A stretch of 64,000 nt of DNA, from assembly GCA_015062245.1 (NCBI GenBank), contig SUVA01000002.1, forward strand, positions 25,234 through 89,233. The letters are read 5' to 3'. The translations under genes and the position numbers were made by a program. Source of the DNA: Alphaproteobacteria bacterium. Its GTDB lineage: Bacteria > Pseudomonadota > Alphaproteobacteria > CAAHEQ01 > UBA3637. Below the pieces are notes generated by a model. The model did no database searches, had not been told where the DNA came from, and worked only from the letters and a program-made list of their open reading frames with translations. This document shows, one piece after another, positions 3,896 to 45,712 of the stretch; the first letter of the stretch is position 1; the number at the start of each line of letters is the position of its first letter.

Positions 3896-6151
3896 CTAAA
3901 TGTTCTTTTTTAAATTGGCGATTTGGGTGTTTGGGATATTTTCACCCGATTGAATTTTGGATACGATTGTTTGAACCTGTTCGGGGGTATAATGTTGATG
4001 GACAAAGTCAATGCGGTAAAAATCGCTTTGAACTTGTTCACGCAATTTTCCCATATAAAAAGGTTTACTTGAAATCAAGGTTAAAGCACAGTCTTTAATT
4101 TTTGCCCAATAAGAATCTGTTGCTTTTTTAATTGGAATAAAACAGGTTTGTTTTTGACAGTGTTTACAATTGTTTTTTATACAGTTGGCACTTTGGAATA
4201 AAGGAATATCCTGATAAACAACAGCCACGGTACTTATCGGACTTTTGTCATTGACGGCCATCATATTTTCCATTGTGTCCTCTATGGGTAAAGTAATACG
4301 TGAGGCGTTCATTTTCTGTGCCATTAAAACGGCTTGACTGTTCATGGTATAAAAGGCGTTGTCAAAGCTTAAATCAATACCCTTTTCGGGCAAAACATTT
4401 AATCCCCAAGGATTGCCAATTTCCCATTTACGATAGCCCAAGTTCAATAAATCTTTGATGATTTTATGGAAATTTTGTGAATTTCGGGCAATACTGGGTA
4501 AAGCCAAACGTACTTTGTTTTTGGGCAGTTTTTTAATCTGTTCAATGTTTATATCTGGGGTTAAAAGAACAATCACTTCATGAAAGGTTGATAAATCTGT
4601 TTGATTCAGGCAAATTAAATTATCCGTTTTTATCAGCCACTTTGTTGGTTGTTTTTTTCTGGGCTTTGGATTTTGAAGTTCTGTCTGTTTTTCTTTGATT
4701 TCAATGCGTTCATATAAATCACGGCGCAATTGATTTAAAACGGATGCCGGCACAAATAAACCATTGTTGTTTTCAATTTTGATATTTGGTTTAAAGTCGG
4801 TATCTTTATATTTTAAAAAGGCCTGTAAAACACTGTCATGGGCTTTTTGCGGATTTTGGGCCACATCAAAATGGCCATTTGATACAACCGATTGCCCACA
4901 GGCCGAAGCCGTTATTTTATCCGTTTCAATTTGAACCATTACATCAATGGGGTATCGGATTTTAAATTCATTGGGCTTTGGCTTTTCGTAATGATAGGTG
5001 GCTTTTACCTGACCGCTGGATGCCAAATAAATTTGCGTTCCTTTATCAATAAAGGGTGCGTTGTTCGGCAATTGTACTTGTACTTTTTGATGCGCTTTTG
5101 CTTCAAAAACCTGCCGACCGTTTGATATAATTTCCTGCACCGAAAAGCCAAAAGGTTTTTCCGTTCCCGGTATATCCAATTGCAAACCGTCATATTTTGA
5201 AAAAGAGTGCTTTGGGGTGAAGGTCATATATTGTTTGAAAACTTTTTCAGCCTGTCCGATGGGCAATCCTCTGTGTCCCACAAAATCGGTATCAATGATA
5301 TCATTGTTTTTGCCCAACAAATGAAAGGTTGTCCATGGGCGTGAAAAGATTTGTTTAATGTTTTCAGCTTTTGATTTATCCGCCCCTTTACCATCCAAGA
5401 TATGGCGATAATAATCCACAACGGCCGCCACATATAAATCTTTTTTCTTGCGTCCTTCTATTTTTAAAGAACAGATGGGTAATTTTAAAATATGTTCTTG
5501 CAACGCCATATCTTTCATGGAAAATAAATGAGCCTTTTTTTCGCCCCATTGGAATAAAGCGCGACACGGATAGGCACATTTGCCACGGTTGGCACTGCGC
5601 CCCGATTCTATGGATGAAAATTGGCACAAACCGCTGTAGGCATAACACAAAGCCCCATGCACAAAAATTTCAATTTCCAAATCCTTAATGGTGGCAATTT
5701 TTTCAATTTCGGGTAAAGTCAATTCTCGGGCCAAAACAACCCGTGTAAAGCCTAATTTTTTTAAAGCCAAAGCCCCGTCCACATTATGAACGGCCATTTG
5801 TGTGCTGGCATGCAGTTTTAAATTCGGATAGTGTTCTTTGATGATATGGGCCACACCGATGTCTTGCAAGATTATACCGTCCACTTGACAGGTATTACAA
5901 ACATCCAAAGTTCGCATCAATTCATCCAATTCTTTTTCCTGAATCAATGTATTGATGGTCACATAAACACACTTGTTTAAATGATGTGCATAGGCGGTCA
6001 ATTCGCTGAGTTGTTCGGGTGTAAAGTTGGTGGCGTTGGCACGTGCTGAAAAAGATTTTAAACCCAAATAAACGGCATCTGCCCCATAATAAAAGGCGGC
6101 ATACCCTGCATCTAAATCACCGGCCGGTGCCAAAAGTTCGTGTTTTTTCAT
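3896..6151 (-). CDS. peptidase U32 family protein (long form)
   Basis: U32 collagenase-like N-terminal domain (ELLAPAG...GADAVY...CAYPCR cysteines); start placed at MKKHELL ATG 6151; ~750 aa is long for the family. Confidence 0.8.
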   Translation of the reverse strand: MKKHELLAPAGDLDAGYAAFYYGADAVYLGLKSFSARANATNFTPEQLSELTAYAHHLNKCVYVTINTLIQEKELDELMRTLDVCNTCQVDGIILQDIGVAHIIKEHYPNLKLHASTQMAVHNVDGALALKKLGFTRVVLARELTLPEIEKIATIKDLEIEIFVHGALCYAYSGLCQFSSIESGRSANRGKCAYPCRALFQWGEKKAHLFSMKDMALQEHILKLPICSLKIEGRKKKDLYVAAVVDYYRHILDGKGADKSKAENIKQIFSRPWTTFHLLGKNNDIIDTDFVGHRGLPIGQAEKVFKQYMTFTPKHSFSKYDGLQLDIPGTEKPFGFSVQEIISNGRQVFEAKAHQKVQVQLPNNAPFIDKGTQIYLASSGQVKATYHYEKPKPNEFKIRYPIDVMVQIETDKITASACGQSVVSNGHFDVAQNPQKAHDSVLQAFLKYKDTDFKPNIKIENNNGLFVPASVLNQLRRDLYERIEIKEKQTELQNPKPRKKQPTKWLIKTDNLICLNQTDLSTFHEVIVLLTPDINIEQIKKLPKNKVRLALPSIARNSQNFHKIIKDLLNLGYRKWEIGNPWGLNVLPEKGIDLSFDNAFYTMNSQAVLMAQKMNASRITLPIEDTMENMMAVNDKSPISTVAVVYQDIPLFQSANCIKNNCKHCQKQTCFIPIKKATDSYWAKIKDCALTLISSKPFYMGKLREQVQSDFYRIDFVHQHYTPEQVQTIVSKIQSGENIPNTQIANLKKNI

Positions 6152-14144: not shown

Positions 14145-14153
14145 AGGCACATT

Positions 14154-14230
14154 CGGAGTGTAGCGCAGCCTGGTAGCGCACTTGTCTGGGGGGCAAGGTG
14201 TCGTGGGTTCAAATCCCGCCACTCCGACCA
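14154..14230 (+). tRNA. tRNA-Pro (anticodon GGG)
   Basis: Manual cloverleaf: acceptor CGGAGTG/CACTCCG, D-arm GCGC-AGCCTGGTA-GCGC, anticodon loop CTGGGGG, T-arm GTGGG-TTCAAAT-CCCGC, encoded CCA. Confidence 0.88.
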
Positions 14231-14404
14231 CTAAACACAAACGCCGAAAAATCGGCGTTTTTTCTTTTATTTTCAAGCACTTGCAAGAGTTCGAATGTTG
14301 AAAGCTAAAAAACAGCCATTTTCTTGAATTTACGAACTCTGGAACCAAAAAATCCTTATTTTTCAATACCTATCCATCGGGAAGCTAAAACTACTATCCC
14401 AGAA
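14221..14404 (+). repeat. cassette repeat R1 (contiguous with genuine tRNA-Pro 3' end)
   Basis: Shares ACTCCGACCACTAAACACAA, hairpin, GTTCGAAT, CAGCCATTTTC..TTTACGAACTCT..CCAAAAAATCC..CAATAC..GGGAGCTAAAA..TCCCAGAAA blocks with R2-R4. Confidence 0.8.
14241..14266 (+). terminator. rho-independent terminator after tRNA-Pro (also first element of repeat R1)
   Basis: acgccgaaaaatcggcgt hairpin followed by TTTTTTC. Confidence 0.6.
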
Positions 14405-14406
14405 AT

Positions 14407-15156
14407 TTACAACTTTTTATATATACTCATAACATGAGTAGAACAACCTATCATATCTGGACGTTCTGCTATCTGTAATTGTATTTGTTTGATTTTATTA
14501 AAGCTTGTTTTATCTAACTTATTTGTATATTCTTTTAATATTTCAAACAAGCCATCCAAGGATACATCGGATATGTGTTTTAATTTCGTCTTAGAAACCA
14601 GTTTGTGAAAGTCATTTACAAAATATGTTTCATAGATATCTTTTTCTACATGCTTTTTCTTAAAAGCGTTATAATTACCCTTTATCAATCCAAAACGGTA
14701 AATTATCGGTGTATTGGTTAGATAGTTAAATAACACTATTCCATTTTTCATACATATTCTATATGCTTCTTTAATTGCTTGAATTTTCTCATCTTCTTTA
14801 AATAAATGGGAGATAGGGCCATTTACAAAGACCACATCAAAGCAATCCGATTTTATAGATTTTAATTTTACAATATCACCACATAAAGTATCAAAATTAG
14901 AAGTTTTAATGCGTTTTGAAAGTCTATCCAAATTTTCTTGAAATAAATCTATCGCTGTAACGTGTTTTGCAAATTTAACTATCTCCGGCGAATAAGACCG
15001 AATTCCGGCTCCAATTTCTGCAACAGAGTTATGTTTCTTAATATACTTTTTTAGATAGTTAATTGTTACAAATCGTTCTAATAAAACATTGTTTTCTTCA
15101 ATTTTTTCACTTTTATTGCGTGTTTTATAAAACTTATATAGATTTTCTTTATCCAT
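14407..15156 (-). CDS. class I SAM-dependent methyltransferase (cassette 1)
   Basis: Motif I VAEIGAGIRSY, downstream D/E and VVFVNGPISH motif IV-like. Confidence 0.75.
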   Translation of the reverse strand: MDKENLYKFYKTRNKSEKIEENNVLLERFVTINYLKKYIKKHNSVAEIGAGIRSYSPEIVKFAKHVTAIDLFQENLDRLSKRIKTSNFDTLCGDIVKLKSIKSDCFDVVFVNGPISHLFKEDEKIQAIKEAYRICMKNGIVLFNYLTNTPIIYRFGLIKGNYNAFKKKHVEKDIYETYFVNDFHKLVSKTKLKHISDVSLDGLFEILKEYTNKLDKTSFNKIKQIQLQIAERPDMIGCSTHVMSIYKKL

Positions 15157-15211
15157 GATATACTCCCTTTAGAGCAGTTCTATCACAAATGGTATAAAAA
15201 AGCAATATCAA

Positions 15212-15416
15212 AGTTCGTGAATTGCGCATCCGTTCCGACCACTAAACACAAAGCATCAGAAATGGTGCTTTTTTATTTATTTTACAAGGTGTTGTGCGGG
15301 TTCGAATCTCCAACCGTCAAAATCAGCCATTTTCTTGAATTTACGAACTCTGGAACAAAAAAGTCCTTTAAAATCAATATAGGAAGTCTGGGAGCTAAAA
15401 TTACTGTTCCAGAAAA
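15212..15416 (+). repeat. cassette repeat R2
   Basis: Begins AGTTCGTGAATTGCGCATCCGTTCCGACCACTAAACACAA (degenerate tRNA T-arm/acceptor 3' half); same block order as R1. Confidence 0.8.
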
Positions 15417-15422
15417 AATGGC

Positions 15423-15451
15423 TTGACTTTCCTTATCTTTATATGTAAACT
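15423..15451 (+). promoter_or_regulatory. candidate sigma70 promoter for NUDIX/HAD cassette (TTGACT-17-TAAACT)
   Basis: Located directly after R2; AAGGAG RBS at 15472 and ATG at 15484 follow. Confidence 0.4.
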
Positions 15452-15483
15452 GGTTCTAGATTTTTCTAAAAAAGGAGTTTTAA

Positions 15484-15912
15484 ATGTCTGAAAATACTGT
15501 TTTTGTGGGATGTGGTGTTATTTTGCTTAACTCAAAAGGTCAATTTTTAATGATGAAACGCACCAGTAAACACGGGCAAGGGACTTGGGGCTTACCTGGT
15601 GGGCACATGGAATTTGGTGAAACATTTGAAACAGTGGCTATTCGTGAGGTTTCTGAAGAATTAGGTATTGAAATTCATAATCCGCACGTTTTAGGCGTTA
15701 CCAACAACTTCTTTCCAAATGAAAACAAGCATTCTGTTAGTATTATTTTGATTGCAAGGTTAGAAAATCAAGAACCAAAGAACATGGAACCACATAAATG
15801 TTCAGAATTGCGTTGGTGTGACGATTGGGAACATTTACCGGCTCCTGTTTTTATCCCTTATAATAAGTATATTTCCTTAAAACAAATAAGAGAATATTTT
15901 GAAAGTAAATAG
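15484..15912 (+). CDS. NUDIX hydrolase (cassette 2)
   Basis: NUDIX box GGHMEFGETFETVAIREVSEELGI. Confidence 0.85.
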   Translation: MSENTVFVGCGVILLNSKGQFLMMKRTSKHGQGTWGLPGGHMEFGETFETVAIREVSEELGIEIHNPHVLGVTNNFFPNENKHSVSIILIARLENQEPKNMEPHKCSELRWCDDWEHLPAPVFIPYNKYISLKQIREYFESK

Positions 15913-16615
15913 CCATATTCCGAATTTAAAGACCAAAACACATCTGATTTTTGATTTAGATGGGACCTTGATTGATTCTTTAAATATCTGGAATGTCATT
16001 GATCAGGCTGTTTTAAAAGGCCTAAACATTGTTGTCCCTTTGGATATTCTTCAACAAGAGCATACGATTTTTTTTAAAAAAGAAAATAGCTATATTCATT
16101 ATGCACAATTTTTAATTAAAAATCATCACTTAGAAATTACACCAGAAGAATTTCTGAAGATGCGTTGGCAAATAGCAGATAGCATTTTAACAGAACAAGT
16201 TGATTTTAAAAATGGTGTTGTAAAGATCCTTAAAAAATTAAAAGAACAATATGTACTTATATTAGCAACCAGCTCTACAAAACATATTCTATCGATTTAT
16301 GCACACCAAAATCAAAAAATGGCAAAAAGGTTATGTTTAGAAACTTTCTTTGATATGATATTGACACAGGAGGATATTCCTTTTGGAAAGGGAAAGCCTG
16401 AACCAGATATTTATTTGACTGTTCTGAAAAAATATTCTGTTAAACCTGAAAAATGCCTTATTTTTGAAGATTCATTGGAGGGTGTACAAGCCGCTTATCA
16501 CTCTGGCATAGATGTCATTCATGTAAATGATCCATTTATTCCTTTTGAGGATAAAAAATCAATACAGAAATATACCCCTTATCATTTGAAGAAATGGTCA
16601 GATTTTAAGATATAA
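15899..16615 (+). CDS. HAD-superfamily hydrolase (beta-phosphoglucomutase-like; cassette 2)
   Basis: Motif I LIFDLDGTLIDS; 14-nt overlap with NUDIX gene suggests an operon. Confidence 0.8.
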   Translation: MKVNSHIPNLKTKTHLIFDLDGTLIDSLNIWNVIDQAVLKGLNIVVPLDILQQEHTIFFKKENSYIHYAQFLIKNHHLEITPEEFLKMRWQIADSILTEQVDFKNGVVKILKKLKEQYVLILATSSTKHILSIYAHQNQKMAKRLCLETFFDMILTQEDIPFGKGKPEPDIYLTVLKKYSVKPEKCLIFEDSLEGVQAAYHSGIDVIHVNDPFIPFEDKKSIQKYTPYHLKKWSDFKI

Positions 16616-16625
16616 AATATTTTCT

Positions 16626-16832
16626 GAGCTCGTGAATTGCGCATTCATTCCGACCACTAAACACAAGTCGTCTCAAAAGGCGACTTTTTCTTTATTTTAC
16701 AAGCACTTATAAAAGTTCGAATGTTCAACTGTCAAAATTGGCTATTTTCAGCCATTTACGAACTCTTGAACCAAAAAATCCTTATTTTTCAATACTTGTC
16801 CTCTGAGAGTTCCAAACTACCATCCCAGAAAA
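16626..16832 (+). repeat. cassette repeat R3
   Basis: GAGCTCGTGAATTGCGCATTCATTCCGACCACTAAACACAA + hairpin gtcgtctcaaaaggcgac + conserved blocks. Confidence 0.8.
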
Positions 16833-16900
16833 TAGGTAATATTTTCAAATTTGTTTACAATATTATTGCTATTTTTGAAATAACATAGTATTCTAACCAT

Positions 16901-18562
16901 ATGTTAAGGCCTATAAAAGATTTTTTTATATTACAAATATTAAAAAAGAATAAAACACAGTTACAATTTCTTCTGCTCTTTTTGATGTTCTTCTTTTCTG
17001 TTTTGCAAGTGTATACTGAACCAGTACTTTTTAATGTTTGTTTTCTTTCTTTTTTTGCATTTGTTTGGTTTCTATTAGCGATAAAAAGACAGGTTATTTT
17101 TACTTTATATTTTTTTCTTGTTTTTTCCCCTGGATGCCTGCACTTCGTCTACCAACTTATATTTCGTCATCCAATAGATGATGCATCCATTGAGCAGGTA
17201 TTCATCTCTAATATTGCAATTAGTTTTGCTTTTTTAAAATCTCATCCTATATTGCTATGTTGTATTCCGTTAATTTTACTGCTTTTTGTACTTTTTTCGC
17301 ATATTTCGCATTTAATTGCTTCTCTCCAAATTTCATCCAGTAAGTACATACGTTTTTTAAGTACGTTGATGCTTTTGTGGCTAATAGTATTTTTATTGTT
17401 CTCTCATGGAAGTATATATCGTGTTGTCTTTGACGGATATCTTTCCTATAAAGCCGACTGTGCTTTTGTAGCGGATATAGTTGAAAAAAAACTCAACACT
17501 ACTTTTTCAAATGTAAAAATATCAGAGGATCAAACGGTTATTGTCGTGATAGGGGAATCCGAAACAAGAACGATGTTATCCTTGTATGGATATCAAAAAG
17601 ATACAACACCCCATTTATCTGACTTAAAAGATAAACTGATTGTTTTTTCTGATGTGTTCTCTCCACATTCCCATACAGCGACTGTTTTGGACAAAGCTTT
17701 ATCCCTAAAATCATTTAGTGACACTCCGAATAATTTTGGATCTGTTATTGATTTGTTTTCTCAAGCAGGGTTTGAAGTCTGGTGGCTTTCAACTCCACCT
17801 TTAAGAGACGTATGGTCTGGTTCAACAATGGCTATTTTATCAAATGCTGCACATCATAAATTTTTTCTAAATAAAGGTATATCATGGGATAGACATGACA
17901 TTGACTTATTACCAAAAATCAAAGAAGCAATTCTTCAACCCACTCCCAAAAAATTAATTTTTGTACATTTATTAGGGAGTCATGGAGCATATACGGATAG
18001 ATATCCAGAATCATTACGACGTCTTGATTTGACACCATATGAGAATACTATTTATTCAACAGATTACTTTATGAATGAAATAATCAATTTTTTAGAAAAA
18101 GAAAATATAAAAAACACGAAACTTCTTTATTTTTCGGATCATGGTGATGCACCACAGTGTCAATGTCATACAGAAGCGTTAGGATATCCAGAAATGTTTG
18201 AAGTCCCTTTTTATCTTTGGCTCAGTCCTGATATTAGAAATAAGTTTAAGTTAAATAAAGATATGCTTACAAAACCCTATAATACAGAACATTTGATTCA
18301 CTCGATTGCTGATTTGGCAAAAATTTCATCGGATGAAATTGATATACAAAAAAGCATTTTTAATCAAAATAGGAGAGGATTATATATTATGTTAGATGGT
18401 AAAAAATATGCTATTTCTTCGGATTTAATCTTTGAAGTTTCTCATCCTATAACAAGAGGAAAGGTAGTTGATTTTTCTGAGCATTACTTAAAAATCAAGT
18501 GGTATTCTTCTGGTGAGATAGAAACATGGGAAAATAAAAATTCAATTTGGCAAAAAATATAA
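16901..18562 (+). CDS. sulfatase-family membrane protein, phosphoethanolamine/phosphoglycerol transferase (EptA/OpgB)-like (cassette 3)
   Basis: Five N-terminal TM helices followed by alkaline-phosphatase/sulfatase-fold domain (VIGESETR.., DHGD motifs). Confidence 0.7.
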   Translation: MLRPIKDFFILQILKKNKTQLQFLLLFLMFFFSVLQVYTEPVLFNVCFLSFFAFVWFLLAIKRQVIFTLYFFLVFSPGCLHFVYQLIFRHPIDDASIEQVFISNIAISFAFLKSHPILLCCIPLILLLFVLFSHISHLIASLQISSSKYIRFLSTLMLLWLIVFLLFSHGSIYRVVFDGYLSYKADCAFVADIVEKKLNTTFSNVKISEDQTVIVVIGESETRTMLSLYGYQKDTTPHLSDLKDKLIVFSDVFSPHSHTATVLDKALSLKSFSDTPNNFGSVIDLFSQAGFEVWWLSTPPLRDVWSGSTMAILSNAAHHKFFLNKGISWDRHDIDLLPKIKEAILQPTPKKLIFVHLLGSHGAYTDRYPESLRRLDLTPYENTIYSTDYFMNEIINFLEKENIKNTKLLYFSDHGDAPQCQCHTEALGYPEMFEVPFYLWLSPDIRNKFKLNKDMLTKPYNTEHLIHSIADLAKISSDEIDIQKSIFNQNRRGLYIMLDGKKYAISSDLIFEVSHPITRGKVVDFSEHYLKIKWYSSGEIETWENKNSIWQKI

Positions 18563-18575
18563 ATTTATTTGCTCT

Positions 18576-18783
18576 GAGTTCGTAAATTGCGCATTCACTC
18601 CGACCACTAAACACAAAGCATCAGAAATGGTGCTTTTTTCTTTATCTTACAAGGCCTTGTTCGGGTTCGTATGTTCAACTGTCAAAATCAGCCATTTTCA
18701 ACCATTTACGAACTCTTGAGTCAAAAAATCCTTTGTTTTCAATACCTGTCCCTTGGGAGCCTAAAACATAAATCCCAGAAAAT
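18576..18783 (+). repeat. cassette repeat R4
   Basis: GAGTTCGTAAATTGCGCATTCACTCCGACCACTAAACACAA; hairpin identical to R2 (agcatcagaaatggtgct). Confidence 0.8.
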
Positions 18784-18822
18784 AGACCTAAAAATTTAAT
18801 TTATTTTTCCTTACAAAATATG

Positions 18823-20543: not shown

Positions 20544-23315
20544 TTATGATTCCTCGCTTGTTGTGTTTTCTGTTATAATTTCTTGTTCAGATTCTTCATC
20601 ACTTTCCATATAGGGCACCGTTGTGGCGGATACCACTTTTTCTTTTTTGCCATCCAAACGGAAAACAATCACGCCCATGGTCGCACGTCCCGCAATACGA
20701 ATATCATTCACACGGGTGCGGATAATCTGACCGCCGTCTGTGACCAACATTAAATCATCATCTTTGTTGACCGGCATTGATGCAATCACATGGGCCGCAC
20801 GTTTGCCTTCATCCGTTTTGATGTTGGTGACGCCTTGTGTCCCGCGTGAGGTAATACGGTATTCATAGGCGCTGGTGCGTTTACCATAACCGGCACTGGT
20901 TAAAGTCAAGATGAATTCTTCATCATTGGCCATCTTTTCAAATTCTTCGGCCGTTAAAGTGGTATTTGTTGTGCTTTCCACTTCCACTTTATCATCTTCG
21001 GTGGCCAAACCTTCGGCACGGCGACGGGCAGCAGCTTCTTTCAAATAAGCATCACGCTTATCAATTTCGGCTTTGGCATGTTTCAACACGCTCATAGACA
21101 TCACTTCATCATCGCCGACTAATTTCATCCCACGCACACCGGTGGAAGCCCGTGAGGCAAAGACGCGCACGTCATCCACGGGGAAGCGCACGCATTTGCC
21201 GTTTTTGGCGCACAACAGGATATCCTGATTGTCATCACAAATGGCCACACCGACCAACTTGTCGCCTTCGTCCAGCTTCATGGCGATTTTACCGTTTTGA
21301 TTGACACGCCAAAAATCGGACAGCTTATTACGGCGAACGGTTCCTTTGCTGGTGGCGAACATAACGGTCAATTTATCGCATTCTTCTTCTGTTTCGGGTA
21401 AAGTCATAATGGTTGAAATTGTTTCGCCCTGTTGCAATGGCAATAAATTGATTAAAGCCTTACCCAAGCTTTGCGGGCTTCCTTCGGGTAAACGATAGGT
21501 CTTCATCTTATACACAATACCACGGGTTGAAAAGAACAACAACGGACTGTGCGTGCATGCCACAAACAAATTGGTAACGGTATCTTCATCACGGGTGGAC
21601 ATACCCGAACGACCTTTTCCGCCACGGTGTTGGGCACGATAGGTATCCAATTTCACCCGTTTGATATAGCCGGTATTTGTTATGGTTACGACCATCTGTT
21701 CACGGGGAATCAGATTTTCCATATCTTCTTCAAATTCGGCATCTTCAATGGTTGTACGGCGTTCTTCGGGGAATTGTTCTTTAACCTTTAACAATTCTTC
21801 ACGAATGATGGCCAAGATTTTTTCACGGCTGGACAATACGGACAAAAAGCCTTTAATCAAAGCGGCCAATTCGCCCACTTCGGCATGAATTTTATCACGT
21901 TCCAAACCGGTTAAACGGCTGAGCTTTAATTCCAAAATAGCTTTGGCTTGGGCTTCACTCATCATATAAACGCCGTTTTCCACTTTGCGATCGGGTTCGT
22001 CAATCAATTCAATTAAAGCTTCTACGTCCTTGGCGGCCCAATGCTCACGCATCAATTGTTCACGGGCTGTGTTGGGATCAGGGGCAGTTTTAATCATTTC
22101 CACCACTTTATCCAAGTTTGCCACGGCAATGGCCAAGCCGACCAAGACATGAGCCCTATCACGGGCTTTGTTTAATTCAAAGGCAGTACGACGACGCACG
22201 ACTTCTTCACGGAAATCCAAAAAGGCCGAAATGATTTGCTTTAAGTTCATCAATTCGGGGCGTCCGTTATTTAACGCCAACATATTCATACCAAAGCTGG
22301 TTTGCAATGGTGTATATTTATACAACTGATTTAAAACGACATCAGGGAAGGCATCTTTTTTCAATTCCACCACCACACGTACACCCTGACGGTCGGATTC
22401 ATCACGTAAATCGGAAATGCCGTCAATGACTTTGTCTTTGACCAATTGGGCAATTTTCATAATCATTTCGGCTTTGTTGACCTGATAGGGGATTTCGGTA
22501 ATGATAATGGCTGTTTTGTCTTTTTTGATTTCTTCAATGGAACAACGTCCCCGCATGATGACGGAACCACGCCCTGTTTCATAGGCGCTTCTGGCACCGC
22601 CACGGCCCAAAATAACGCCACCGGTTGGGAAATCGGGGGCAGGCACATACCCCATCAATTCATCAATTGTAATTTCGGGGTTATCAATCGTGGCCACACA
22701 GGCACCCAAAACTTCCGACATATTATGCGGGGGCATATTGGTGGCCATACCCACAGCAATACCGCCCGAACCGTTGACCAAGATATTCGGGAAACGAGCC
22801 GGCAACACAGTCGGTTCTTCACACGATTCATCATAGTTAGGCATAAAATCAACGGTATCACGATCAATATCTTCCAACAACCAATGAGCCGATTGGGCCA
22901 ATCTGGCTTCGGTATAACGCATGGCGGCGGCCTTATCCCCGTCCATAGAACCGAAGTTCCCCTGAGGGCTGATAAGCGGAACACGCATTGAAAAGTCCTG
23001 AGCCATACGCACCATAGCTTCGTAAATTGAGCTGTCACCATGGGGGTGATATTTACCCATCACATCACCGACGATACGGGCGGATTTGCGGAAAGGCTTG
23101 TTGTATTCATAACCGTTTTCGTGCATAGAAAACAAAATACGGCGATGCACCGGTTTTAAACCATCCCGCACATCGGGCAGGGCACGTGCCACAATCACGC
23201 TCATGGCATAATCCAAATAGGATTTACGCATTTCTTCTTCAATGCCTGTTTGTAAAATATCGCTGGCAACAACACCCGTTGTCAATGCCGTTTGTTCATT
23301 TAATTCTTCGGTCAT
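20544..23315 (-). CDS. gyrA: DNA gyrase subunit A
   Basis: Canonical GyrA N-terminus ([23 protein letters not shown], active-site Tyr region) and C-terminal beta-pinwheel repeats; acidic tail. Confidence 0.97.
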
Positions 23316-23736: not shown

Positions 23737-25941
23737 CTAGTTCATCCAACTGCAATCGTTTACCTTGTTTACAATGGACATATCTGTGCTTCCCGCAGAA
23801 CCGCAATAATACAGGTTTTGAATTGTACCAGTGTAAAAACCTTGACAATATGCTTTTTTACTTCCTTGCAGATAGGCATTGGTTATGTTACCCGGTGTGG
23901 AAGCTATTATACAATTACATTCTCCACAACTGGCAAGACCATACTCTCCCCCATAAGCAATCAAAGTGCCAATTGTTGCTTCCCCATACACATTGTATAA
24001 TCCACCATTTTTAATCTCTATTTTAGAAGCCTGTAAAGAACCATCGTTTTGCAAGTTTCCTTTTTCTATTTCTATATTTGTTGCTTCCAATGTTTTGACA
24101 GTACTGTATATGCTGTTTGAATTGAGTATACATGTTTCAGGGGTGAAAACTCCACCTGCTGCTGTTATTGGCCCTGAAAAAATTGAACATGTTATATTTT
24201 TTGCAGAGAGTTTTCCTGAATTGTCTAATCCTTTGGCAGCTTTTACATTTATTTTATTTGTTGCAGTTATTGTTCCTGTGTTTCTTATTGCATAAAGATC
24301 TTTGGATAGATTTCCTGTTTCAAAACTTTCTTCTTCCCCCACTACAGTGATATTGTCGGAATTGATTGTTCCGTAATTTGTAATTCCAACGTTAATCATT
24401 TGAGCACTTGCATCTATATCGGAAATATTTAAAGTTCCTCTGTTAATTATTGAAGCATTCGTGGTAAGAGAATCCGAATAAATTGTTCCGTAGTTTTGAA
24501 CAGAATAAGCATTGTCGTTATTACCATCACTTCTTATAAGAATACTATTGACTTTTAAGGTTTTTCCTTCTGACACTGATACCTGCAGAACAGATTGATC
24601 GGAAAATGATAATTTGCATTCGGAAATGTCTAAATCTTTTTCGACGTTTAATCTGCCGTTATATTTTATGGTTTCATTATCTTTCATTAAAAATGTTCCG
24701 TTGGTCCCCGAACTTTCTTTGTCGAGAACATAACCAGCATCAAGCATTTTCAAACAACATTGATTTTCACCGCATCCATCGTCTTCAACGCAATTATTTC
24801 CATCCAGTTTATAACCTTTTTCACATTTTATCGGCAACCCGCTTTCGTTGCACTCCGTCACATTTGCACCACAAGGCGTGCAGGTATTTCCATTTAAATA
24901 ATAGCCAGTTTGACAGGCTGTTGGTTTGCCCGTTGAATCACAGCTGAGCACACCTGTACCACAGGATGTGCAAGAATTTCCATTTTTATAATAGCCGGCT
25001 TGGCAGGTAAAGCCATTTGAAGTACAACTAGCCACACCTGTTGTCGGACATTGAACACAAGAATTACCGCTTAAATAATAACCACTTTTACAAGAGGTTG
25101 GTTTGCCCGTTGAATCACAGCTGGCCACACCTGTGCCACAGGATGTGCAAGAATTTCCATTTTTATAATAGCCGGCTTGGCAGGTAAAGCCATTTGAAGT
25201 ACAACTAGCCACACCTGTTGTCGGACATTGAACACAGGAATTTCCATTTAAATAATACCCCTCTTCACATTCTGTCGGATTGCCATTTTCATCACAAGTA
25301 ACGACACCTGTGCCACAGGAAGTGCAAGTATTACCGTTTTTATAATATCCTGATTCGCATTCAAATCCATCGTCTTTGCAATCCATACTGTTCTCTGGGC
25401 ATTCAATACAATTACCATTTGACAAAAAATACCCGTCAACACAACCTATCGGATTAAAATCACTGTCGCAAACGGCGTTCGCCGGACATTCCCGAGGTTG
25501 ACTATCTTTATCCGGTGTTGTTGATGAATCGGCCTCAGGAAACTTTAAAAAATAAAAGGTAACATTGCTGGTTGATTCACATTCGTCTTTTGTATATCCG
25601 GCACCTATATCAAATTCAGTCAAAACCCCACACAAAGAAGAACTATTCGTTTTTACATCAATCCAAAACCAATCTTTGTTTTTATCACCAACCCCATTTT
25701 CAATCGTAAATATCGTATCGTAGGGACCTTTTTCCGTTCGTGGCATCCGTTCACCGGCATGCGCATTCATAGAAAGTAAGCGAGAATTTTTAATAGCTGT
25801 CAATCTTTGGGCCAATGTATGGGTTTGGCTTTCCAATCTGGCCTCTTGCCACAGACGAATACCAGCCACCGTAATCAATGCAATAATAACCAATACGGAT
25901 AAAACTTCTAATATTGAACGGCCAAATTGTGCTTTTTTCAT
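23737..25941 (-). CDS. type IV pilin-like N-terminus / Cys-rich GYY-CxxC repeat / beta-helix-like large surface protein
   Basis: GGAG RBS; leader MKKAQFG|RSILEVLSVLVIIALITVAG with G(-1) and E(+5); 59-aa tandem Cys-rich repeats (CxxC..GYYxNGNxC); C-terminal NxGT(I/L)-type repeats; paralog of 30944..33169. Confidence 0.75.
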   Translation of the reverse strand: MKKAQFGRSILEVLSVLVIIALITVAGIRLWQEARLESQTHTLAQRLTAIKNSRLLSMNAHAGERMPRTEKGPYDTIFTIENGVGDKNKDWFWIDVKTNSSSLCGVLTEFDIGAGYTKDECESTSNVTFYFLKFPEADSSTTPDKDSQPRECPANAVCDSDFNPIGCVDGYFLSNGNCIECPENSMDCKDDGFECESGYYKNGNTCTSCGTGVVTCDENGNPTECEEGYYLNGNSCVQCPTTGVASCTSNGFTCQAGYYKNGNSCTSCGTGVASCDSTGKPTSCKSGYYLSGNSCVQCPTTGVASCTSNGFTCQAGYYKNGNSCTSCGTGVLSCDSTGKPTACQTGYYLNGNTCTPCGANVTECNESGLPIKCEKGYKLDGNNCVEDDGCGENQCCLKMLDAGYVLDKESSGTNGTFLMKDNETIKYNGRLNVEKDLDISECKLSFSDQSVLQVSVSEGKTLKVNSILIRSDGNNDNAYSVQNYGTIYSDSLTTNASIINRGTLNISDIDASAQMINVGITNYGTINSDNITVVGEEESFETGNLSKDLYAIRNTGTITATNKINVKAAKGLDNSGKLSAKNITCSIFSGPITAAGGVFTPETCILNSNSIYSTVKTLEATNIEIEKGNLQNDGSLQASKIEIKNGGLYNVYGEATIGTLIAYGGEYGLASCGECNCIIASTPGNITNAYLQGSKKAYCQGFYTGTIQNLYYCGSAGSTDMSIVNKVNDCSWMN
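24958..25312. repeat. near-identical 177-bp tandem repeat (2 copies; diverged copies flank to ~24840-25340) inside pilin-like gene
   Basis: acaggatgtgcaagaatttccatttttataatagccggcttggcaggtaaagcc... recurs at 24961 and 25138 (period 177 bp = 59 aa). Confidence 0.85.
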
Positions 25942-26045: not shown

Positions 26046-28445
26046 TTATTTTGCCACGAATTTAACGGCAGTTTTTTCAATTTCAAACGATTCAATGACA
26101 TCACCGATTTTAATATCGTCATATTTGGCCAATTTAACACCGCATTCAAAGCTTTCTTTGACCTCTTTGACATCATCCTTCATACGCTTTAATTGATCCA
26201 AATCACCCGTAAAGATAACAACGTTATCACGCAACAATCTGACCTTGGAACCACGTTTAATCAAACCGTCCGTTACCATACAGCCGGCAATTTTGCCCAC
26301 TTTGGAAATGGAAATAACCTGACGGATTTCGGCATGACCCAAAATCTTTTCGTGTTCTTCGGGTGTTAGCAAACCTTCCACAGCCTTTTTCATATCATCA
26401 GCCACATCATAGATGATGGAATAATAACGAATATCCACACCATCACGTTTGGCCATATCACGGGCGGCCGGATTGGCACGAACGTTAAAGCCGACAATAA
26501 TGGCATGGCTGGCACGGGCCAAAGTGATATCTGTTTCATTGATGGCACCCACGGCCGCATGCATAATATTGACTTTGACTTCGTCATTTTTGATTTTGGA
26601 TAAAATACCCACCAAAGCTTCCACAGAACCTTGCACATCGGCTTTAATCAAAACGGGCACTTCTTTCATTTCGCCGGCTTTAATTTTGGCCAACAAACCT
26701 TCGGTACCGCCCAAGCGTTTAATGTTCAACAATTCACGGGCTTTGCGACCACGATAGGCCGAAATTTCACGGGCGGTATTTTCATCTTTTACCACCACAA
26801 AATCATCACCGGCCGATGGTGTACCGTTCAAACCGACCACTTCCACCGGTTGAGCCGGAACAGCCGTTGTCAGCTTTTCCTCTTTGGCGTTTGTTAAAGA
26901 ACGTACACGTCCCCATTGTTGCCCTGTTACAAAAATATCACCGATATGTAAAGTGCCTGTGCGCATCAAGACGGTGGCCACAGATCCACGTCCTTTATCC
27001 ATACGGGCTTCCACCACGATACCTTCGGCCGGTCCCACCTGCGGGGCTTTTAAATCCAACATTTCGGCCTGTAATAAGATGGCTTCTACCAATTTATCCA
27101 AATTCAATCTTTGTTTGGCGGAAACTTCCACTTCCAATACATCACCGCCCATGGATTCAACGGCAATACCGTGTTGCAATAAATCGGTGCGCACACGTTG
27201 CGGATTGGCTCCCGGTACATCAATTTTGTTGATGGCCACAATGACGGGGACTTTGGCTGCTTGGGCATGGTGAATAGCTTCCACGGTTTGGGGCATCACA
27301 CTATCATTGGCGGCCACCACCAAAACCACGATATCTGTGATTTGGGCGCCACGGGCACGCATGGCAGTAAAAGCCTCATGCCCCGGTGTATCAATAAAGG
27401 TAATCCTTTGTTGATTGGCCAAAACAACCTGATAAGCACCGATATGCTGTGTAATACCACCGGCTTCACCTGTGGCCACATGTGTGGAACGCAAAGCATC
27501 CAATAAAGATGTTTTACCATGATCCACGTGTCCCATAACCGTTACAACGGGCGGACGGGGCAGGTATTGGTCTTGGGGGATTTCTTCACGTTTTAAAACA
27601 TTTTCCACATCAGATTCGGCCACACGCTGTTTAACACGGTGTCCCATTTCGGTAACAACCAATTCGGCCGTATCGGCATCAATGGTTTGTGTGATGGTTA
27701 CCATCATGCCCATTTTCATCAAAGTTTTTACAACATCAGCGCCTTTTTCGGCCATACGCACAGCCAATTCCTGAACGGTAATTGTTTCGGGAATAATCAC
27801 ATCATGAATCACTTTTTCGGCTGGTCCTTTTTGGGCGTTTAAAAATTTTTGATATTGTTTTTCACGGGCCCGTTTGATGGATGCCAAAGACCGTCTGTGG
27901 CGACGTGGACCGTTTTCATCATCACCGTCATCATCATCAACGGGTTGATATTGTTTATAGGCGTTTAAGTTCACTTTTCCCTGACGTTTTTGTTCAAAGG
28001 ATGATTTTTTATTCATCATTTGTTCAAATTCTTTTTGTTTTTTAGGGGATAATTCGTCTTCTTTTTCGTTTGAATTATTGCGTTTTCTATCGCTGTAATT
28101 TTTGGCTGATTCAATGCTTTCTTGTTGGGCCTGTTTTTGTGCCTGTTCGGCCTGACGTTTGGCTTCTGCCAAAGCCTTTCTTTCGGCTTCTTGACGGGCT
28201 TTTTCTTCTTTTGCCTTACGTTCCATTTCCAATTGTTTGGCATGTTCGGCCACTTTTTGGGCTTCTTGCAATAATTTTAATTTTTGTGCAGCATTTTCGG
28301 ACAATTGAGCCGGTTTTTGTTCGGTATTGATAACACGGCGTTGTTTGCGAACCTCCACCTGAACGCCGGTGCGTGTGCCGGCATTGGGGCGTAAAGTGCC
28401 GCCCAAAGAAAGTGTTTTTCCGGATAAAGTCAATTTTTCACTCAT
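26046..28445 (-). CDS. infB: translation initiation factor IF-2
   Basis: G-domain motifs ([21 protein letters not shown]); start moved to MSEKLTL ATG at 28445 behind AAGGAGG RBS. Confidence 0.95.
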
Positions 28446-28779
28446 GGATACCTCCTTGATTAAACAGGATTTGTTTTTCGGGATAATGCACCAATTTGGT
28501 TTTGACATCATCCATTAAATTTTCGGGGATTTTAACCGTCCCCTTGGCGGCTTTAAAAAAGATACGTTTTTCAATTGCTTTTGCTAAACAATCACAGTTG
28601 GCATGCAACCACATCCCACGGCCGGGTAGAACTTCCCGATCGTCAAAACGCACAACCTGACCCGGTCGCCCCACGAATCTTAACATTTGTTCACGTGGGG
28701 CAATCGTTTTGCATACAAAACAGGTGCGTGTTCCGACAACCGTTTTGGGATTTTTATTTCTGTGATTGTGTCTCTTCAC
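28438..28779 (-). CDS. ylxR: YlxR/DUF448 family RNA-binding protein (start uncertain)
   Basis: RTCFVCK...GRGMWLHA motif of YlxR family between nusA and infB. Confidence 0.65.
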
Positions 28780-30943: not shown

Positions 30944-33169
30944 ATGAAAGAACACAGCGAAAATTTTAGACTTGTTTTAAAAATTACGGTTATTTCGTTT
31001 TTGATTCTTTTTTTTGCTGGCAGTATTTATTTGTGGCGTGCGACACATTTAAAATCCGAAGCACGTGCAATTTCACGCTATTTAATCAGTATTAAGACAA
31101 CTCGTGAAGAAACAATGTCATCGCATGCCGATGAAAAATTTACCCAAACAGAAAGCGGTCCTTATGGTACAACCTTCACTGTTGAAAACGGTATCGGGAA
31201 AAAGAACAAGGATTTTTTCTGGATTAGTACTGAGGTCTACAGTTCTTCTTTGTGTGAGTATTTGGCAAAAGTAAAACTTGGAGCATTAAAAGTAGACAAA
31301 TCAAAGTGTGATACCTCAAATGAAGTTGTTTTCTATTTTGCAAAATTTAAAAGTAAAACGAAAGGTTCACCGGATATGGACAGTCAACCTAAAGGATGTC
31401 CCAAAAATGCCGAATGCGATGATCAGGACAATATTTTAAGTTGTAATGAAGGTTTTTATTTGTCCGATGACAAATGTTTAAAATGTCCTGCAAACAGCAT
31501 CAATTGTGAATATGAAAGTTTTGAATGTCAGGTTGGTTTTTATCGTTCGCAAGGGGATTGTGTGCGTTGTGGAACAGGGGTTATGGCCTGTAATGACAAT
31601 GGTGAACCGACAGAATGTATGACTGATTTTTACCCAATGGATGGCAGATGCGTTCCCTGTTCTGAATTGGGTCCCGGTTTTTGTACAAATTCTTCCGGCG
31701 CTTCTTTGCCGGCGTCTTCGTCTGTCTCTTCAACTTATAAACCGGTTCCGCCTCCGACTCGTCCTGTTGAAAAACCGATAAAAACAAAAACGGAAACATT
31801 AAAAACACCGGAATGTCAGGATGGATATTATCGTAAAGGCGGTTCTTGCGTTGCCTGTCCTTCTTATTATAAAACCTGCGATAAAAACACAGGCTACTTT
31901 ACCTGTCAAGACGGCTATGTGAAAAATGCCGACAGAATGGCTTGTGTTAAAGAAGAAAGCTGTTCTTCAAAGGCAGACAATATCCGTTTGTCTGATTCTG
32001 GGATACGTGTTTCCGTTGAAGGTGATACAATTGTTTTGTCAAATAATCAAACTTCTCAACCGGCTGTTATTTCTCAGGATTTGGATTTTTCGGGATGTAA
32101 TGTCAAAATAAATACAGCCTCTGAAACGCATTTGTTGGGAAATATTTATGCCAAAAATTTGACGATATCTTCACCGGGGAATAGAATTTATACCTACCGT
32201 TCATCAGATGTTGCGCCGACAATATCTTCCGGTAAAAAGATTGTTTGTTCGGGGGATTTAAAAATAAACGGTTCATTTTATTCTGATCGTTCGGTGGATG
32301 TGGCCGGTAATTTGATTATTACGGAATTTATGCAAATGACATCTTCTAATGTTCATATTGCGGGTTATGTATCCGGTGATAGTATATCTACGGCAAAACA
32401 GGTGAAAACCCCCATTACGGTGGAAGGCTATGTTTCCGTTTCGGATTTAGTGCATAACGTAAAAAGCGGAGATTATATCAATGCATCTGTTATTTCGGCA
32501 GGGGAAGCGGAAAATAACATTATGGTTGAACAAATTGCGTTGAATGGAAAATTGGTTTCTAAAAACGGGGATATTATTGTTACCGACAGCCGAAAAAAAG
32601 ATAAAAACCAAGATAATTTGTTCACCGTGCATGTTGATTTCGGTTCTGAACTTTCTGTTTTGAACGGCAGTATGAGTATTGTATCCGGTTTGGATGTTTT
32701 GAATTTGGGCAATATCCACATTGCACGTAATTTGGATGTGGCTATCAGTGGTATTTTCCGCAACTGGAATCAGTTGTATGTTGGTGGTTCTATGACGGCA
32801 AATACAGACATTCGCTTGGCCGGTATCACGCATCCTAATGGAAATAAAATCAATTCACAAACATTGGTTTGTGGTTCTGTTTTCGGTTCAGGTAAAATTC
32901 AATTGAATACCGTTGCTTCTTTGGCGGTGGGTTCAAGTATTTCAACATCTATGAAAACACAGGTTATTAAATATACAGGCGCCTGTGAGCAAGGTGAAGG
33001 AAAACTTTCGGCCGGACGAGCTGCTTACTATGTTCAAAATTATGAAACATATTTAAATAATGGTCAATGTCTTTTGAATAAAAAATCAGAAGAAGGAAGT
33101 TTTTCTGCAAACACCCAAGATAATTGTCAAAATATTTCTTGGTGTCAAAAAAATCGTTATTGCAACTAG
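30944..33169 (+). CDS. pilin-derived (degenerate prepilin motif) Cys-rich / beta-helix-like large surface protein, paralog of 23737..25941
   Basis: GGAGG RBS; N-terminus SENFRLVLKITVISFLILFFAGSIYLW aligns to the pilin leader of its paralog but G(-1) is F and E(+5) is K; shared head domain (ESGPYGTTFTVENGIGKKNKDFFWI), CxxC/GFY repeats, Pro-rich linker, NxG-type repeats. Confidence 0.72.
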   Translation: MKEHSENFRLVLKITVISFLILFFAGSIYLWRATHLKSEARAISRYLISIKTTREETMSSHADEKFTQTESGPYGTTFTVENGIGKKNKDFFWISTEVYSSSLCEYLAKVKLGALKVDKSKCDTSNEVVFYFAKFKSKTKGSPDMDSQPKGCPKNAECDDQDNILSCNEGFYLSDDKCLKCPANSINCEYESFECQVGFYRSQGDCVRCGTGVMACNDNGEPTECMTDFYPMDGRCVPCSELGPGFCTNSSGASLPASSSVSSTYKPVPPPTRPVEKPIKTKTETLKTPECQDGYYRKGGSCVACPSYYKTCDKNTGYFTCQDGYVKNADRMACVKEESCSSKADNIRLSDSGIRVSVEGDTIVLSNNQTSQPAVISQDLDFSGCNVKINTASETHLLGNIYAKNLTISSPGNRIYTYRSSDVAPTISSGKKIVCSGDLKINGSFYSDRSVDVAGNLIITEFMQMTSSNVHIAGYVSGDSISTAKQVKTPITVEGYVSVSDLVHNVKSGDYINASVISAGEAENNIMVEQIALNGKLVSKNGDIIVTDSRKKDKNQDNLFTVHVDFGSELSVLNGSMSIVSGLDVLNLGNIHIARNLDVAISGIFRNWNQLYVGGSMTANTDIRLAGITHPNGNKINSQTLVCGSVFGSGKIQLNTVASLAVGSSISTSMKTQVIKYTGACEQGEGKLSAGRAAYYVQNYETYLNNGQCLLNKKSEEGSFSANTQDNCQNISWCQKNRYCN

Positions 33170-44395: not shown

Positions 44396-45712
44396 ATGCG
44401 TTTAAACCACGATAAAGGGCAAAATAAATGGACCTTGTACACACACACACACACACAAGTAATTCCTGAAAAGACAAAAGCCACCGAAGGTGGCCGTTCA
44501 ATGGTTGAAATGTTGGGAACTTTGGCGATTATAGGGGTGCTATCCATAGGTTCTATTTGGGCCCTTTCGGGTGTGATGAATCGCTTTCGTGCCAATGATT
44601 TATTGGAAGAAGCCTCGGCCCGTGCCATGCGTGTATCCGAACAAATTAAAAAAGGGCGTAAAACATTAAGCCTTGGTAAATTTTTACATAACGAAACGAT
44701 GGGCGGTACTTTTTCCAAACAGGTTTTTACTTCAGGGCTTTATCAACAATTTGCAATTCAGGTATCCGATGTAAATAAAGCCGTTTGTGAAAGGGTTTTA
44801 AATTCTATTACCGAAAATACCCCTTTGCGCCGATTGTCATTGGTGAATTCCCCAACGGTTGCCATCACCGAATGTAATGATGAAAATACGTTTTTGATGG
44901 TTTATAACAGCTCTATCAAAGGGGAAGAACAGGATAAAAAATATTGCGAATCTGATAAAGATTGTGATACGGTTTGTGGAGAATGTAATGAAAATCATAT
45001 ATGCCGTAATGAATGTGAAATTCCAAGACCTGATTTAAATTCTGATTTTGGTCAAGAATGTGGCGAAAATGAATGTGTTGTTTATGATGAAGAAAGTCAG
45101 AGTTGTAAATATAGCTGTGAACGTGTGGAATATTTGGAAGGAACTTACAATTCAGGAAATTCATATATTGATACAGGAATAAAATATGATTGGAGTAAAG
45201 ATTTTTACATGAATATAACAGCTTCTGTTCCCAGTGCAAATGCACGTTTTTGTTTGATTGGGGATTATGCAGCGCAAGGAATAAATTTGGAAAAATCAAA
45301 TAATAAATTGCGTGTTTACGGGCATGGAGGAACTCCAAACAATAACTCTGTAAATGATTTACCAAAAGATAATCAAAAATTCAATGTTCAATGGAGAAGA
45401 AGTATTTCTAATTCAGATGTGGATGTTATTTTAACAACAGATGAATACACAGAAACAATATCAAGAATAGGTATAACTTTTCAAAATGTTTCAAGTTCCA
45501 GCTTGAAAATTTTTACTGATAATCGTTTATCAGGAACATTTATTACACCTGGTGAAAGAATATATTCTTTATATATAAAATTAGGGGAAAATATTCGTGA
45601 TTTCATTCCTGTTATTTCGCCTGATGGTGAACCATGTATGTTTGACAAAGTCAGTAAAAAGCTATTCCGTAATTCAGGAACAGGAACTTTTAAAACAAAT
45701 TTAGATGAATAA
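44396..45712 (+). CDS. type IV pilin-like N-terminus / Cys-rich / C-terminal beta-sandwich-like domain protein
   Basis: AGGAG RBS 10 nt before ATG 44396; leader ...KATEGG|RSMVEMLGTLAIIGVLSIGSIWALSGV (G-1, E+5); Cys-rich CDTVCGECNENHICRNECE segment; ATG 44333 rejected because it lies inside rnhB. Confidence 0.7.
   Translation: MRLNHDKGQNKWTLYTHTHTQVIPEKTKATEGGRSMVEMLGTLAIIGVLSIGSIWALSGVMNRFRANDLLEEASARAMRVSEQIKKGRKTLSLGKFLHNETMGGTFSKQVFTSGLYQQFAIQVSDVNKAVCERVLNSITENTPLRRLSLVNSPTVAITECNDENTFLMVYNSSIKGEEQDKKYCESDKDCDTVCGECNENHICRNECEIPRPDLNSDFGQECGENECVVYDEESQSCKYSCERVEYLEGTYNSGNSYIDTGIKYDWSKDFYMNITASVPSANARFCLIGDYAAQGINLEKSNNKLRVYGHGGTPNNNSVNDLPKDNQKFNVQWRRSISNSDVDVILTTDEYTETISRIGITFQNVSSSSLKIFTDNRLSGTFITPGERIYSLYIKLGENIRDFIPVISPDGEPCMFDKVSKKLFRNSGTGTFKTNLDE
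44439..44456 (+). repeat. (AC)9 dinucleotide tract inside the leader-peptide coding region (YTHTHTQ)
   Basis: acacacacacacacacac read directly; in frame between start codon and prepilin cleavage motif. Confidence 0.9.

Follow-up and report, generated by a model that had tools for sequence, protein, structure and literature searches.

A candidate length-variable cysteine-rich stalk in a type IV pilin-like protein of an uncultured alphaproteobacterium

This analysis concerns a gene on the minus strand at positions 23737-25941 of a 64-kb stretch of contig SUVA01000002.1 (the whole stretch analysed is called the window in the following). The product of 734 amino acids (aa) corresponds to the hypothetical protein MBE6445989.1 of an Alphaproteobacteria metagenome-assembled genome (MAG), as identified by an exact cluster look-up, and the gene is further supported by the list of open reading frames (ORFs) and by its homologues. 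Along the protein, a pilin-like N-terminus (G|RSILE, the bar separating position -1 from +1) is followed by a conserved head ending at about residue 150, eight four-cysteine modules and a beta-rich C-terminus. The explanation that we regard as probable for the whole is that a double module of 59 aa, consisting of an A and a B hairpin, builds a disulfide-rich stalk of variable length between the pilin-like anchor and head and the beta-rich C-terminus.

Tandem modules and an exact nucleotide tract

The structural unit of the stalk is a module of 26-30 aa containing four cysteines (C-x2-C-x6/7-C-x6/8-C-x2-GYY-x-NGN), which is present in eight copies at aa 152-386. On the minus strand, the stalk covers positions 24784-25488 and the modules are located at 25411-25488 (M1), 25327-25410 (M2), 25237-25326 (M3), 25150-25236 (M4), 25060-25149 (M5), 24973-25059 (M6), 24883-24972 (M7) and 24793-24882 (M8). 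From M2 to M7 two types alternate, type A (CxxCP, 28-29 aa) and type B (CxxCG, 30 aa), and this alternation gives rise to a super-unit of 59 aa or 177 nucleotides (nt).

On the DNA level, Tandem Repeats Finder reports a period of 177 at 24886-25347 (2.6 copies, 86% matches, score 677) as well as an 87-nt sub-period with 64% matches. Three in-register super-units of 177 nt are found on the minus strand between 24881 and 25411, namely 24881-25057, taken as the reference, 25058-25234 (92% identity) and 25235-25411 (63%). The array is in frame, 177 nt being 59 codons of the ORF 23737-25941, and is far beyond chance, since the window contains just one other family of direct repeats with a length of at least 35 nt.

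Within the array, a tract of 101 nt occurs twice without a single difference (24959-25059 = 25136-25236). Its first copy, 25136-25236 on the minus strand, comprises M4 and the first 14 nt of M5, and its second copy, 24959-25059 on the same strand, M6 and the first 14 nt of M7; thus M4 (aa 236-264) and M6 (aa 295-323) are 100% identical on nucleotide level. Variable-number repeats of surface-protein genes are marked by tandem units that keep the frame and are identical over long nucleotide tracts, and both features are found here, with 101 nt of exact and 92% of per-unit identity. An earlier note on this DNA had described the units 24961-25137 and 25138-25314 as almost identical. Its repeat observation is real but overstated and is only partly confirmed: these units agree at 153 of 177 positions (86%), and true identity is present only in the 101-nt tract. 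The translated module which it quoted is correct (aa 265-323), and more diverged copies indeed flank the units. ORFs on the plus strand across the repeat (e.g., 24606-24947) were considered as genes and rejected, since the minus-strand ORF is rich in homologues.

A comparison on codon level reveals how uneven the similarity is. Between M4 and M6 none of 87 nt differ and around 20 synonymous sites are unchanged (proportion of synonymous differences, pS, 0). M5 and M7 differ at 14 of 90 nt (pS 0.33; proportion of non-synonymous differences, pN, 0.10), M3 and M5 at 25 of 90 (pS 0.55), so that the B modules beside the identical A modules differ at 16-28% of their sites. The equivalent A modules of two related proteins, P0003 and P0005, show a mutual identity of just 75-80%. 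From this pattern we infer that M4 and M6 were homogenised by gene conversion over a short tract, or by an equivalent patch or double recombination, which fits better than a fresh duplication of a whole unit. A further case is seen in the gene of P0002, a family member at another locus (contig L007, 4001-6139), where the B-type modules at aa 206 and 265, one 177-nt period apart, are 97% identical on nucleotide level and do not differ in their protein sequence. This pair of its own suggests that homogenisation of the stalk is recurrent and lineage-specific.

Variation in unit number and exchange of cassettes

The closest database protein, P0001, has a length of 675 aa, i.e., 734 minus 59, and is encoded on two JGI contigs from different samples (3300024303 and 3300018493). 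Its DNA equals the window gene minus exactly 177 nt. Here, the common prefix of 806 nt and the common suffix of 1323 nt add up to the allele length of 2028 nt plus 101, and therefore the deletion junction can be placed anywhere inside the pair of 101-nt tracts. Judged from the sequences, a short allele of this kind is what recombination or slippage would yield if it acted on the two identical tracts. A module of the M5 type is also present in the paralogue P0003 (88% nucleotide identity, compared to 84% between M5 and M7). The arrangement with two units is thus not entirely recent, which makes a deletion the preferred reading of the short allele.

One of the two contigs carrying the short allele, L002, is otherwise 100% identical to the window over 4387 nt. 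The other one, L001, has one single-nucleotide difference and is nearly identical over ~3.9 kb, after which the identity drops to ~70% inside gyrA (~3960-4772); either the assembly is chimeric here, or gyrA itself is recombinant or divergent. The long allele of 734 aa is found on four other contigs, among them an NCBI MAG contig of 113 kb. Thus, otherwise identical genes appear to differ in unit number, with 734 aa on four contigs and 675 aa on two contigs from other samples, although an assembly collapse would look the same. Among diverged family members the number of modules, M1 counted, varies from three to eight, the relatives having three to six. A 63-nt piece of the tract gave no match in the JGI metagenome contig collection, though the pattern is present in contigs L001-L003, whose samples evidently lie outside this collection.

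The 3' part of the gene appears to be exchangeable as well. Contig L009 (Logan SRR24653860) carries an infB gene 98-100% identical to that of the window and therefore belongs to the same species. The first ~700 nt of its gene downstream of infB are 88-98% identical to the window gene and the remainder is unrelated to it. Instead, the ~1250 nt at the 3' end are 85-98% identical to the gene of P0003, of which the 5' part shows just 62-68% identity. The transition between the two parents spans approximately nt 700-1080 and begins at the end of M3, where M4 would be expected to start. These alignments suggest a strain-level cassette replacement, with L009 being a chimera whose breakpoint zone lies in or just after the repeats. 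Since the transition zone starts at the repeats, they look like a hinge for cassette exchange in addition to a length-variable spacer. P0003 and P0006 are located at the DUF4167/ACPS locus, which in the window lies across the infB-nusA-rimP operon from the gene at 23737-25941 and there harbours a fourth member of the family (30944-33169).

The pilin-like N-terminus and head

Residues 1-60 (25762-25941, minus strand) comprise a leader resembling a class III (prepilin-type) signal, MKKAQFG|RSILE, and a long alpha-1 helix, as indicated by the alignments, by matches to pilin profiles and by AlphaFold2 (AF2). In the leader MKKAQFG|RSILEVLSVLVIIALITVAG, G7 and E12 are invariant in alignments of eight and of 44 sequences. 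A basic leader, Gly(-1), Glu(+5) and a hydrophobic alpha-1N of ~20 residues, which define a class III signal, are all present. Furthermore, a head profile built from the 44 sequences aligns in register with the G|FTLIE of ~20 solved type IV pilins, the best match being Geopilin (E = 7.7e-5), with PilA, TcpA, PilE and PpdD among the others. A pilin-type N-terminus is thereby supported for the gene, which the earlier note had called pilin-like.

The globular head (aa 61-150; 25492-25761, minus strand) is conserved in the family and was modelled as a sheet of four to five strands with a short helix. The head-only AF2 model has a mean predicted local distance difference test score (pLDDT) of 93.9 and a predicted template modelling score of 0.82. 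It displays an N-terminal helix of 55 residues (6-60, pLDDT >95) on a sheet with strands at 68-71, 77-82, 91-97, 116-120 and 126-132. In a Foldseek search of the PDB, the best pilin was PilW of C. difficile with a query-based TM-score (TMq) of 0.43-0.44 (E 0.8-3.3), and the two chains of this minor pilin are the sole bacterial filament proteins in the list of structural matches to the head. They rank behind ARPC2, the top entry, which was set aside as a generic helix-on-sheet resemblance, no match having E<=1e-3. Taken together, the protein can be described from these comparisons as type IV pilin-like, and it would presumably be displayed on a filament.

Alternative explanations

The earlier note had explained the repeats by recent unequal crossing-over or slippage of units. 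In its strict form, this would mean that a whole 177-bp unit was duplicated very recently and that the two near-identical units have been diverging since. In line with it are the array of period 177, whose best register reaches 92% identity, and the existence of an allele differing by exactly one unit. However, after a fresh duplication both halves of the unit should be equally similar, whereas one half shows 0/87 and the other 14/90 differences (pS 0.33), and for this reason a duplication of the whole unit is disfavoured. Also the closest relative of M5 lies in another gene, that of P0003, and M5 is no simple hybrid of M7 and M3: such a crossover product was considered and rejected, since M5 has residues and codons of its own, which are common with P0003. 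Hence, a recent whole-unit duplication appears improbable with a tract flanked by halves of pS 0.33-0.55, and what stands of the proposal is the copy-number variant by one unit. A strong purifying selection on an essential structural module might, on the other hand, keep M4 and M6 identical without any recombination, and the modules are certainly constrained in structure, as their four cysteines and the GYY are conserved. Nevertheless, selection acting on the protein leaves synonymous differences untouched, and A modules of the orthologous type in P0003 and P0005 are only 75-80% alike. With a pS of 0 directly adjoining a pS of at least 0.33, this explanation is effectively refuted. The homogenisation of M4 and M6 by conversion or an equivalent patch therefore remains the reading followed here.

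Several points weigh against this reading and against the larger one built on it. The converted tract is deduced from one gene, and the same picture would result if a paralogue outside the sample had taken part in a double crossover. Regarding the unit number, the only sources of the short allele are metagenome contigs of 4.4-4.8 kb assembled from short reads, and a collapsed assembly loop would yield exactly the same short sequence. The repeat number might thus be fixed and the 675-aa allele be a short-read collapse of the 76-nt loop between the 101-nt tracts, without any real variation in size. Contig L012 begins inside the first 101-nt tract, 79 nt short of its end, a typical de Bruijn break, which shows that assemblers struggle at the tract; the gyrA of L001, ~70% identical after 1.8 kb, points to a chimeric or strain-mixed assembly; and L002 has flanks 100% identical to the window, leaving no independent strain marker by which the alleles could be told apart. 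On the contrary, the same short form was obtained from two independent samples, and a tract of 101 nt should be resolvable by common metagenome assemblers (with 150-nt reads, their largest k-mers exceed 101 nt). Moreover, module number clearly varies among diverged family members and the chimera L009 demonstrates that the locus is recombinogenic. We therefore hold a collapse for a serious yet lesser possibility and the short allele for probably real; the variation in repeat number and size that the earlier note had expected is supported by an allele in other samples lacking exactly one 177-nt unit and is tempered by the possible collapse. Regarding the pilin assignment, position +1 is Arg in 70 of 76 family members (P0047-P0124; Lys in three, His in two and Gln in one), giving the family consensus G|R-S/T-[MILV]-[LIV]-E instead of a hydrophobic +1 residue. 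In pilins, position +1 is usually Phe or Met and is N-methylated. None of the curated pilin hidden Markov models (HMMs) scored above its cut-off with the protein, N_methyl (PF07963) giving no match and PRK10506 16.9-20.2 bits versus 158, and relatives and paralogues likewise stayed below (N_methyl 14.2-16.8 versus 21.2 bits, TIGR02532 13.7 versus 16.3). The Foldseek search with the head gave no significant pilin match, and no prepilin peptidase, pilus or type II secretion component is found among the 30 larger ORFs scanned in the 64-kb window. In addition, a paralogue at 30944-33169 has lost Gly(-1) and Glu(+5) but kept the rest. All of this would fit a protein that is no pilin subunit, with the N-terminus being just a signal-anchor helix, the protein being periplasmic, bound to the inner membrane or otherwise released, and the repeats serving as the spacer of a non-filament protein. 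Against this stand the invariant Gly(-1) and Glu(+5), the alpha-1N in register with ~20 solved pilins, the helix of 55 residues packed on a sheet, which is pilin architecture, and the PilW chains as the only bacterial filament proteins among the structural matches (TMq 0.43-0.44). We consider a non-pilin nature unlikely and retain the pilin-like assignment.

Kinship of the cysteine-rich modules

The earlier note had compared the repeats to furin-like, ephrin-receptor-like and Giardia variant-specific surface protein (VSP) repeats. Their cysteine-rich character holds. The repeat region of 246 aa alone reaches 34.4 bits with Pfam VSP (PF03302; cut-off 31.4, E = 1.5e-8) over model positions 228-322 of 397, whereas the whole protein scores 18.5 bits (E = 1e-3), below the cut-off of 31.4. 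Giardia VSPs possess a C-terminal transmembrane helix and a conserved CRGKA cytoplasmic tail. The protein described here ends with ...VNKVNDCSWMN, has no C-terminal hydrophobic helix, and its sole hydrophobic helix is N-terminal. Since the C-terminal VSP anchor is missing, it does not appear to be a member of the VSP family.

The comparison is weakened for the other families: neither the repeat region nor the di-module had a Pfam match to Ephrin_rec_like, GCC2_GCC3 (PF07699) or Furin-like (PF00757) when matches up to E<=10 were listed. For the repeat region, cEGF stayed sub-threshold, NCBIfam gave no match, and DUF4215 / myxococcal cysteine-rich repeat (PF13948) reached 15.4-15.5 bits, below a cut-off of 27 bits. 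A di-module profile matched the EphA2 cysteine-rich domain with E = 0.007 (20 bits), and the same domain was the only match of the repeat region alone to PDB sequences (E = 0.063). The distant homologue P0008 passes Ephrin_rec_like with 26.0 versus 23.1 bits. Matches of the di-module profile to CCP/sushi domains (E = 1.7e-4) were rejected, as they consist of just the short motif 'F.C..GY..G..C' over several weak stretches. Structurally, Foldseek listed EGF repeats of NELL2, Fu1-Fu2 of R-spondin and Eph ectodomains, all non-significant with E of at least 0.04; the values for R-spondin Fu1-Fu2 were E 0.29-0.7, probability 0.44-0.75 and TM-score (target) 0.32-0.39, at a stalk pLDDT of 74-81. Based on these similarities, the modules would belong to the broad class of CXXC, furin-like or VSP-like disulfide hairpin repeats.

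The full-length model and the protein family

The full-length AlphaFold model, obtained with the eight-sequence alignment, has a mean pLDDT of 69.6. It displays a helix (10-60), a small sheet (68-132), regular beta-hairpins (156-386, pLDDT 74-81) and a beta-rich C-terminus of lower confidence. The latter domain (aa 415-734, ~320 aa; 23737-24699, minus strand) consists of AF2 strands of moderate-to-low pLDDT and had zero Pfam or NCBIfam matches. Its Foldseek similarity to the beta-helices of TPS and GlmU is weak and non-significant, and judged from the model it is probably a beta-helix-like putative binding module. Foldseek searches with the full-length and the head model gave zero matches at E<=1e-3, and the complete protein sequence had no match among PDB sequences.

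The head profile matched 197 cluster representatives at E<=1e-3, 54 of them at E<=1e-10, among 1.84 billion clusters, and zero relatives in the JGI metagenome contig collection. The lengths and C-terminal contents of the matches vary widely. All relatives that could be traced to a genome originate from other Alphaproteobacteria MAGs, and so far the family with the G|R-S/T-x-x-E leader has been found solely in MAGs of uncultured Alphaproteobacteria and on metagenome contigs. Searches of the literature on rumen Alphaproteobacteria for VSP-like or Cys-rich bacterial pilins yielded no relevant report. It is an undescribed modular-pilin-like family with Arg at +1, an unannotated head and eukaryote-like cysteine-rich stalks.

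Genomic context and further features of the window

The host is an uncultured gut or rumen alphaproteobacterium. A diderm cell envelope is assumed, at which a weak outer-membrane beta-barrel match at 57305-58093 hints. The gene is flanked by gyrA (20544-23315) and infB (26046-28511)/nusA, and other genes of the window are housekeeping genes (mutL, tsaD, an H+-PPase gene, relA/spoT, secA, sodB and the gene of pyruvate phosphate dikinase). Promoter and terminator scans gave background level only.

The paralogue at 30944-33169 (plus strand, 741 aa) shows 38% identity over 332 aa (BLASTP, E = 2e-73); it retains the head and the Cys modules, and in place of the pilin motif MKEHSENFRLVLK is found. 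As it lies opposite of 23737-25941, the infB-nusA-rimP translation operon has paralogues of the family on both sides. Two more distant pilin-like Cys-rich proteins are encoded at 44486-45712 (plus strand, GGRSMVEMLG...) and 58150-59289 (minus strand, KGRSMVEMLG..., N_methyl 16.7 bits at a cut-off of 21.2). Both have a G|RSMVEMLG pilin-type leader and are scattered among the housekeeping genes. The protein of 58150-59289 ends in a WWSAYSWCKGNG... segment, which is also present at the C-termini of P0002, P0006 and P0007. This segment is reminiscent of C-type lectin-like domains, and Pfam detected no such domain in it.

A separate element of the window is an island at 14150-18800 with a GC content of ~0.31 and four direct repeats of ~190-213 nt (14197-14409, 15208-15420, 16623-16835 and 18573-18785), which are 68-81% identical. 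The first repeat overlaps the 3' end of tRNA-Pro(ggg) at 14154-14230, and every repeat contains a tRNA-3'-end-like CACTCCGACCACTAAACACA followed by a terminator-like hairpin. Three cassettes are bracketed by the repeats, an unannotated ORF (14407-15156), two unannotated ORFs (15484-16615) and a sulfatase-family protein (16901-18562). In appearance, the island resembles a cassette array or the outcome of repeated integration at tRNA-Pro.

Proposed mechanism and significance

Mechanistically, a short conversion tract or an equivalent recombinational patch would homogenise M4 and M6 and thereby create a perfect direct repeat of 101 nt, on which unequal homologous recombination or replication slippage could then act. 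Such an event would remove or add one unit of 59 aa and leave the frame and the cysteine pattern intact. The length and surface of the predicted stalk, which would space the C-terminal module from the pilin base, might be altered in this way. The repeats may furthermore act as a homology hinge at which paralogues swap their 3' cassettes. By analogy to modular pilins, a type IV filament or pseudopilus could carry the protein, probably in a tip position.

Conspecific genomes appear to differ at this locus by unit number and by whole 3' cassettes, and if this is confirmed on read level, the locus could be used as a strain marker. The disulfide-rich repeats would then exemplify an adjustable spacer and a hinge for module exchange in one, and the family would add architectures to the known modular pilins which present-day signatures do not detect.

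Comparison with known systems

A more speculative and rather doubtful view would see a bacterial analogue of the variant surface protein families of protists. Here, a pilin-anchored multigene family, marked by a head domain of its own and the G|R-S/T-x-x-E leader and comprising ~200 of 1.84 billion clusters, would use its repeats as recombination hinges. Strains of one species would change stalk length and swap C-terminal cassettes among the paralogues flanking the infB operon, so that the antigens or receptors displayed by a type IV filament would vary on population level. Like the VSPs of Giardia, the protein has CXXC-rich tandem modules of the GYY type and belongs to a multigene family with variable extracellular parts. 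In contrast to them, it has an N-terminal pilin-like anchor, lacks the C-terminal transmembrane helix and the CRGKA tail, matches the model only partially, occurs in a bacterial host and shows no sign of expression being switched one at a time. With the ephrin-receptor cysteine-rich domain, Ephrin_rec_like domains and the furin-like repeats of R-spondin it shares short disulfide-bonded beta-hairpin modules with C..GY/F followed by CxxC, whereas its modules are shorter than those of Ephrin_rec_like and furin-like domains, having four cysteines in 26-30 aa.

The architecture as a whole resembles modular type IV pilins. In these, such as PilB and PilC of Streptococcus sanguinis and CofB of enterotoxigenic Escherichia coli, a small pilin module bears bulky functional modules, probably at the filament tip, and more than 1,200 such proteins with 264 architectures, including ones with multiple repeats, have been described (Raynaud et al., 2021; PMC8179133). 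The class III signal-like leader and, as modelled, the long alpha-1 helix and the small sheet followed by bulky non-pilin modules are common to both. Unlike modular pilins, the protein has Arg instead of Phe or Met at +1 and a head without a Pfam/InterPro-type signature above threshold, and the graft consists of eight four-Cys modules and a beta-rich domain whose presentation on a filament is conjectural.

Repeat-number-variable surface proteins of bacteria are known from the Alp/Rib-type tandem repeats, and gene conversion of pilins from pilE/pilS of Neisseria. In common with these are highly similar units in frame, the presumed loss or gain of units between identical tracts and mosaics derived from paralogues. 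Different from them, only two or three similar units are present here instead of long identical arrays, the units are Cys-rich hairpins, and no silent-cassette locus or dedicated recombination signal is recognised. Thus, the repeat mechanism is a known and fairly ordinary kind of surface-protein variation, while the protein family and the mosaicism of its locus are new, although not categorically so.

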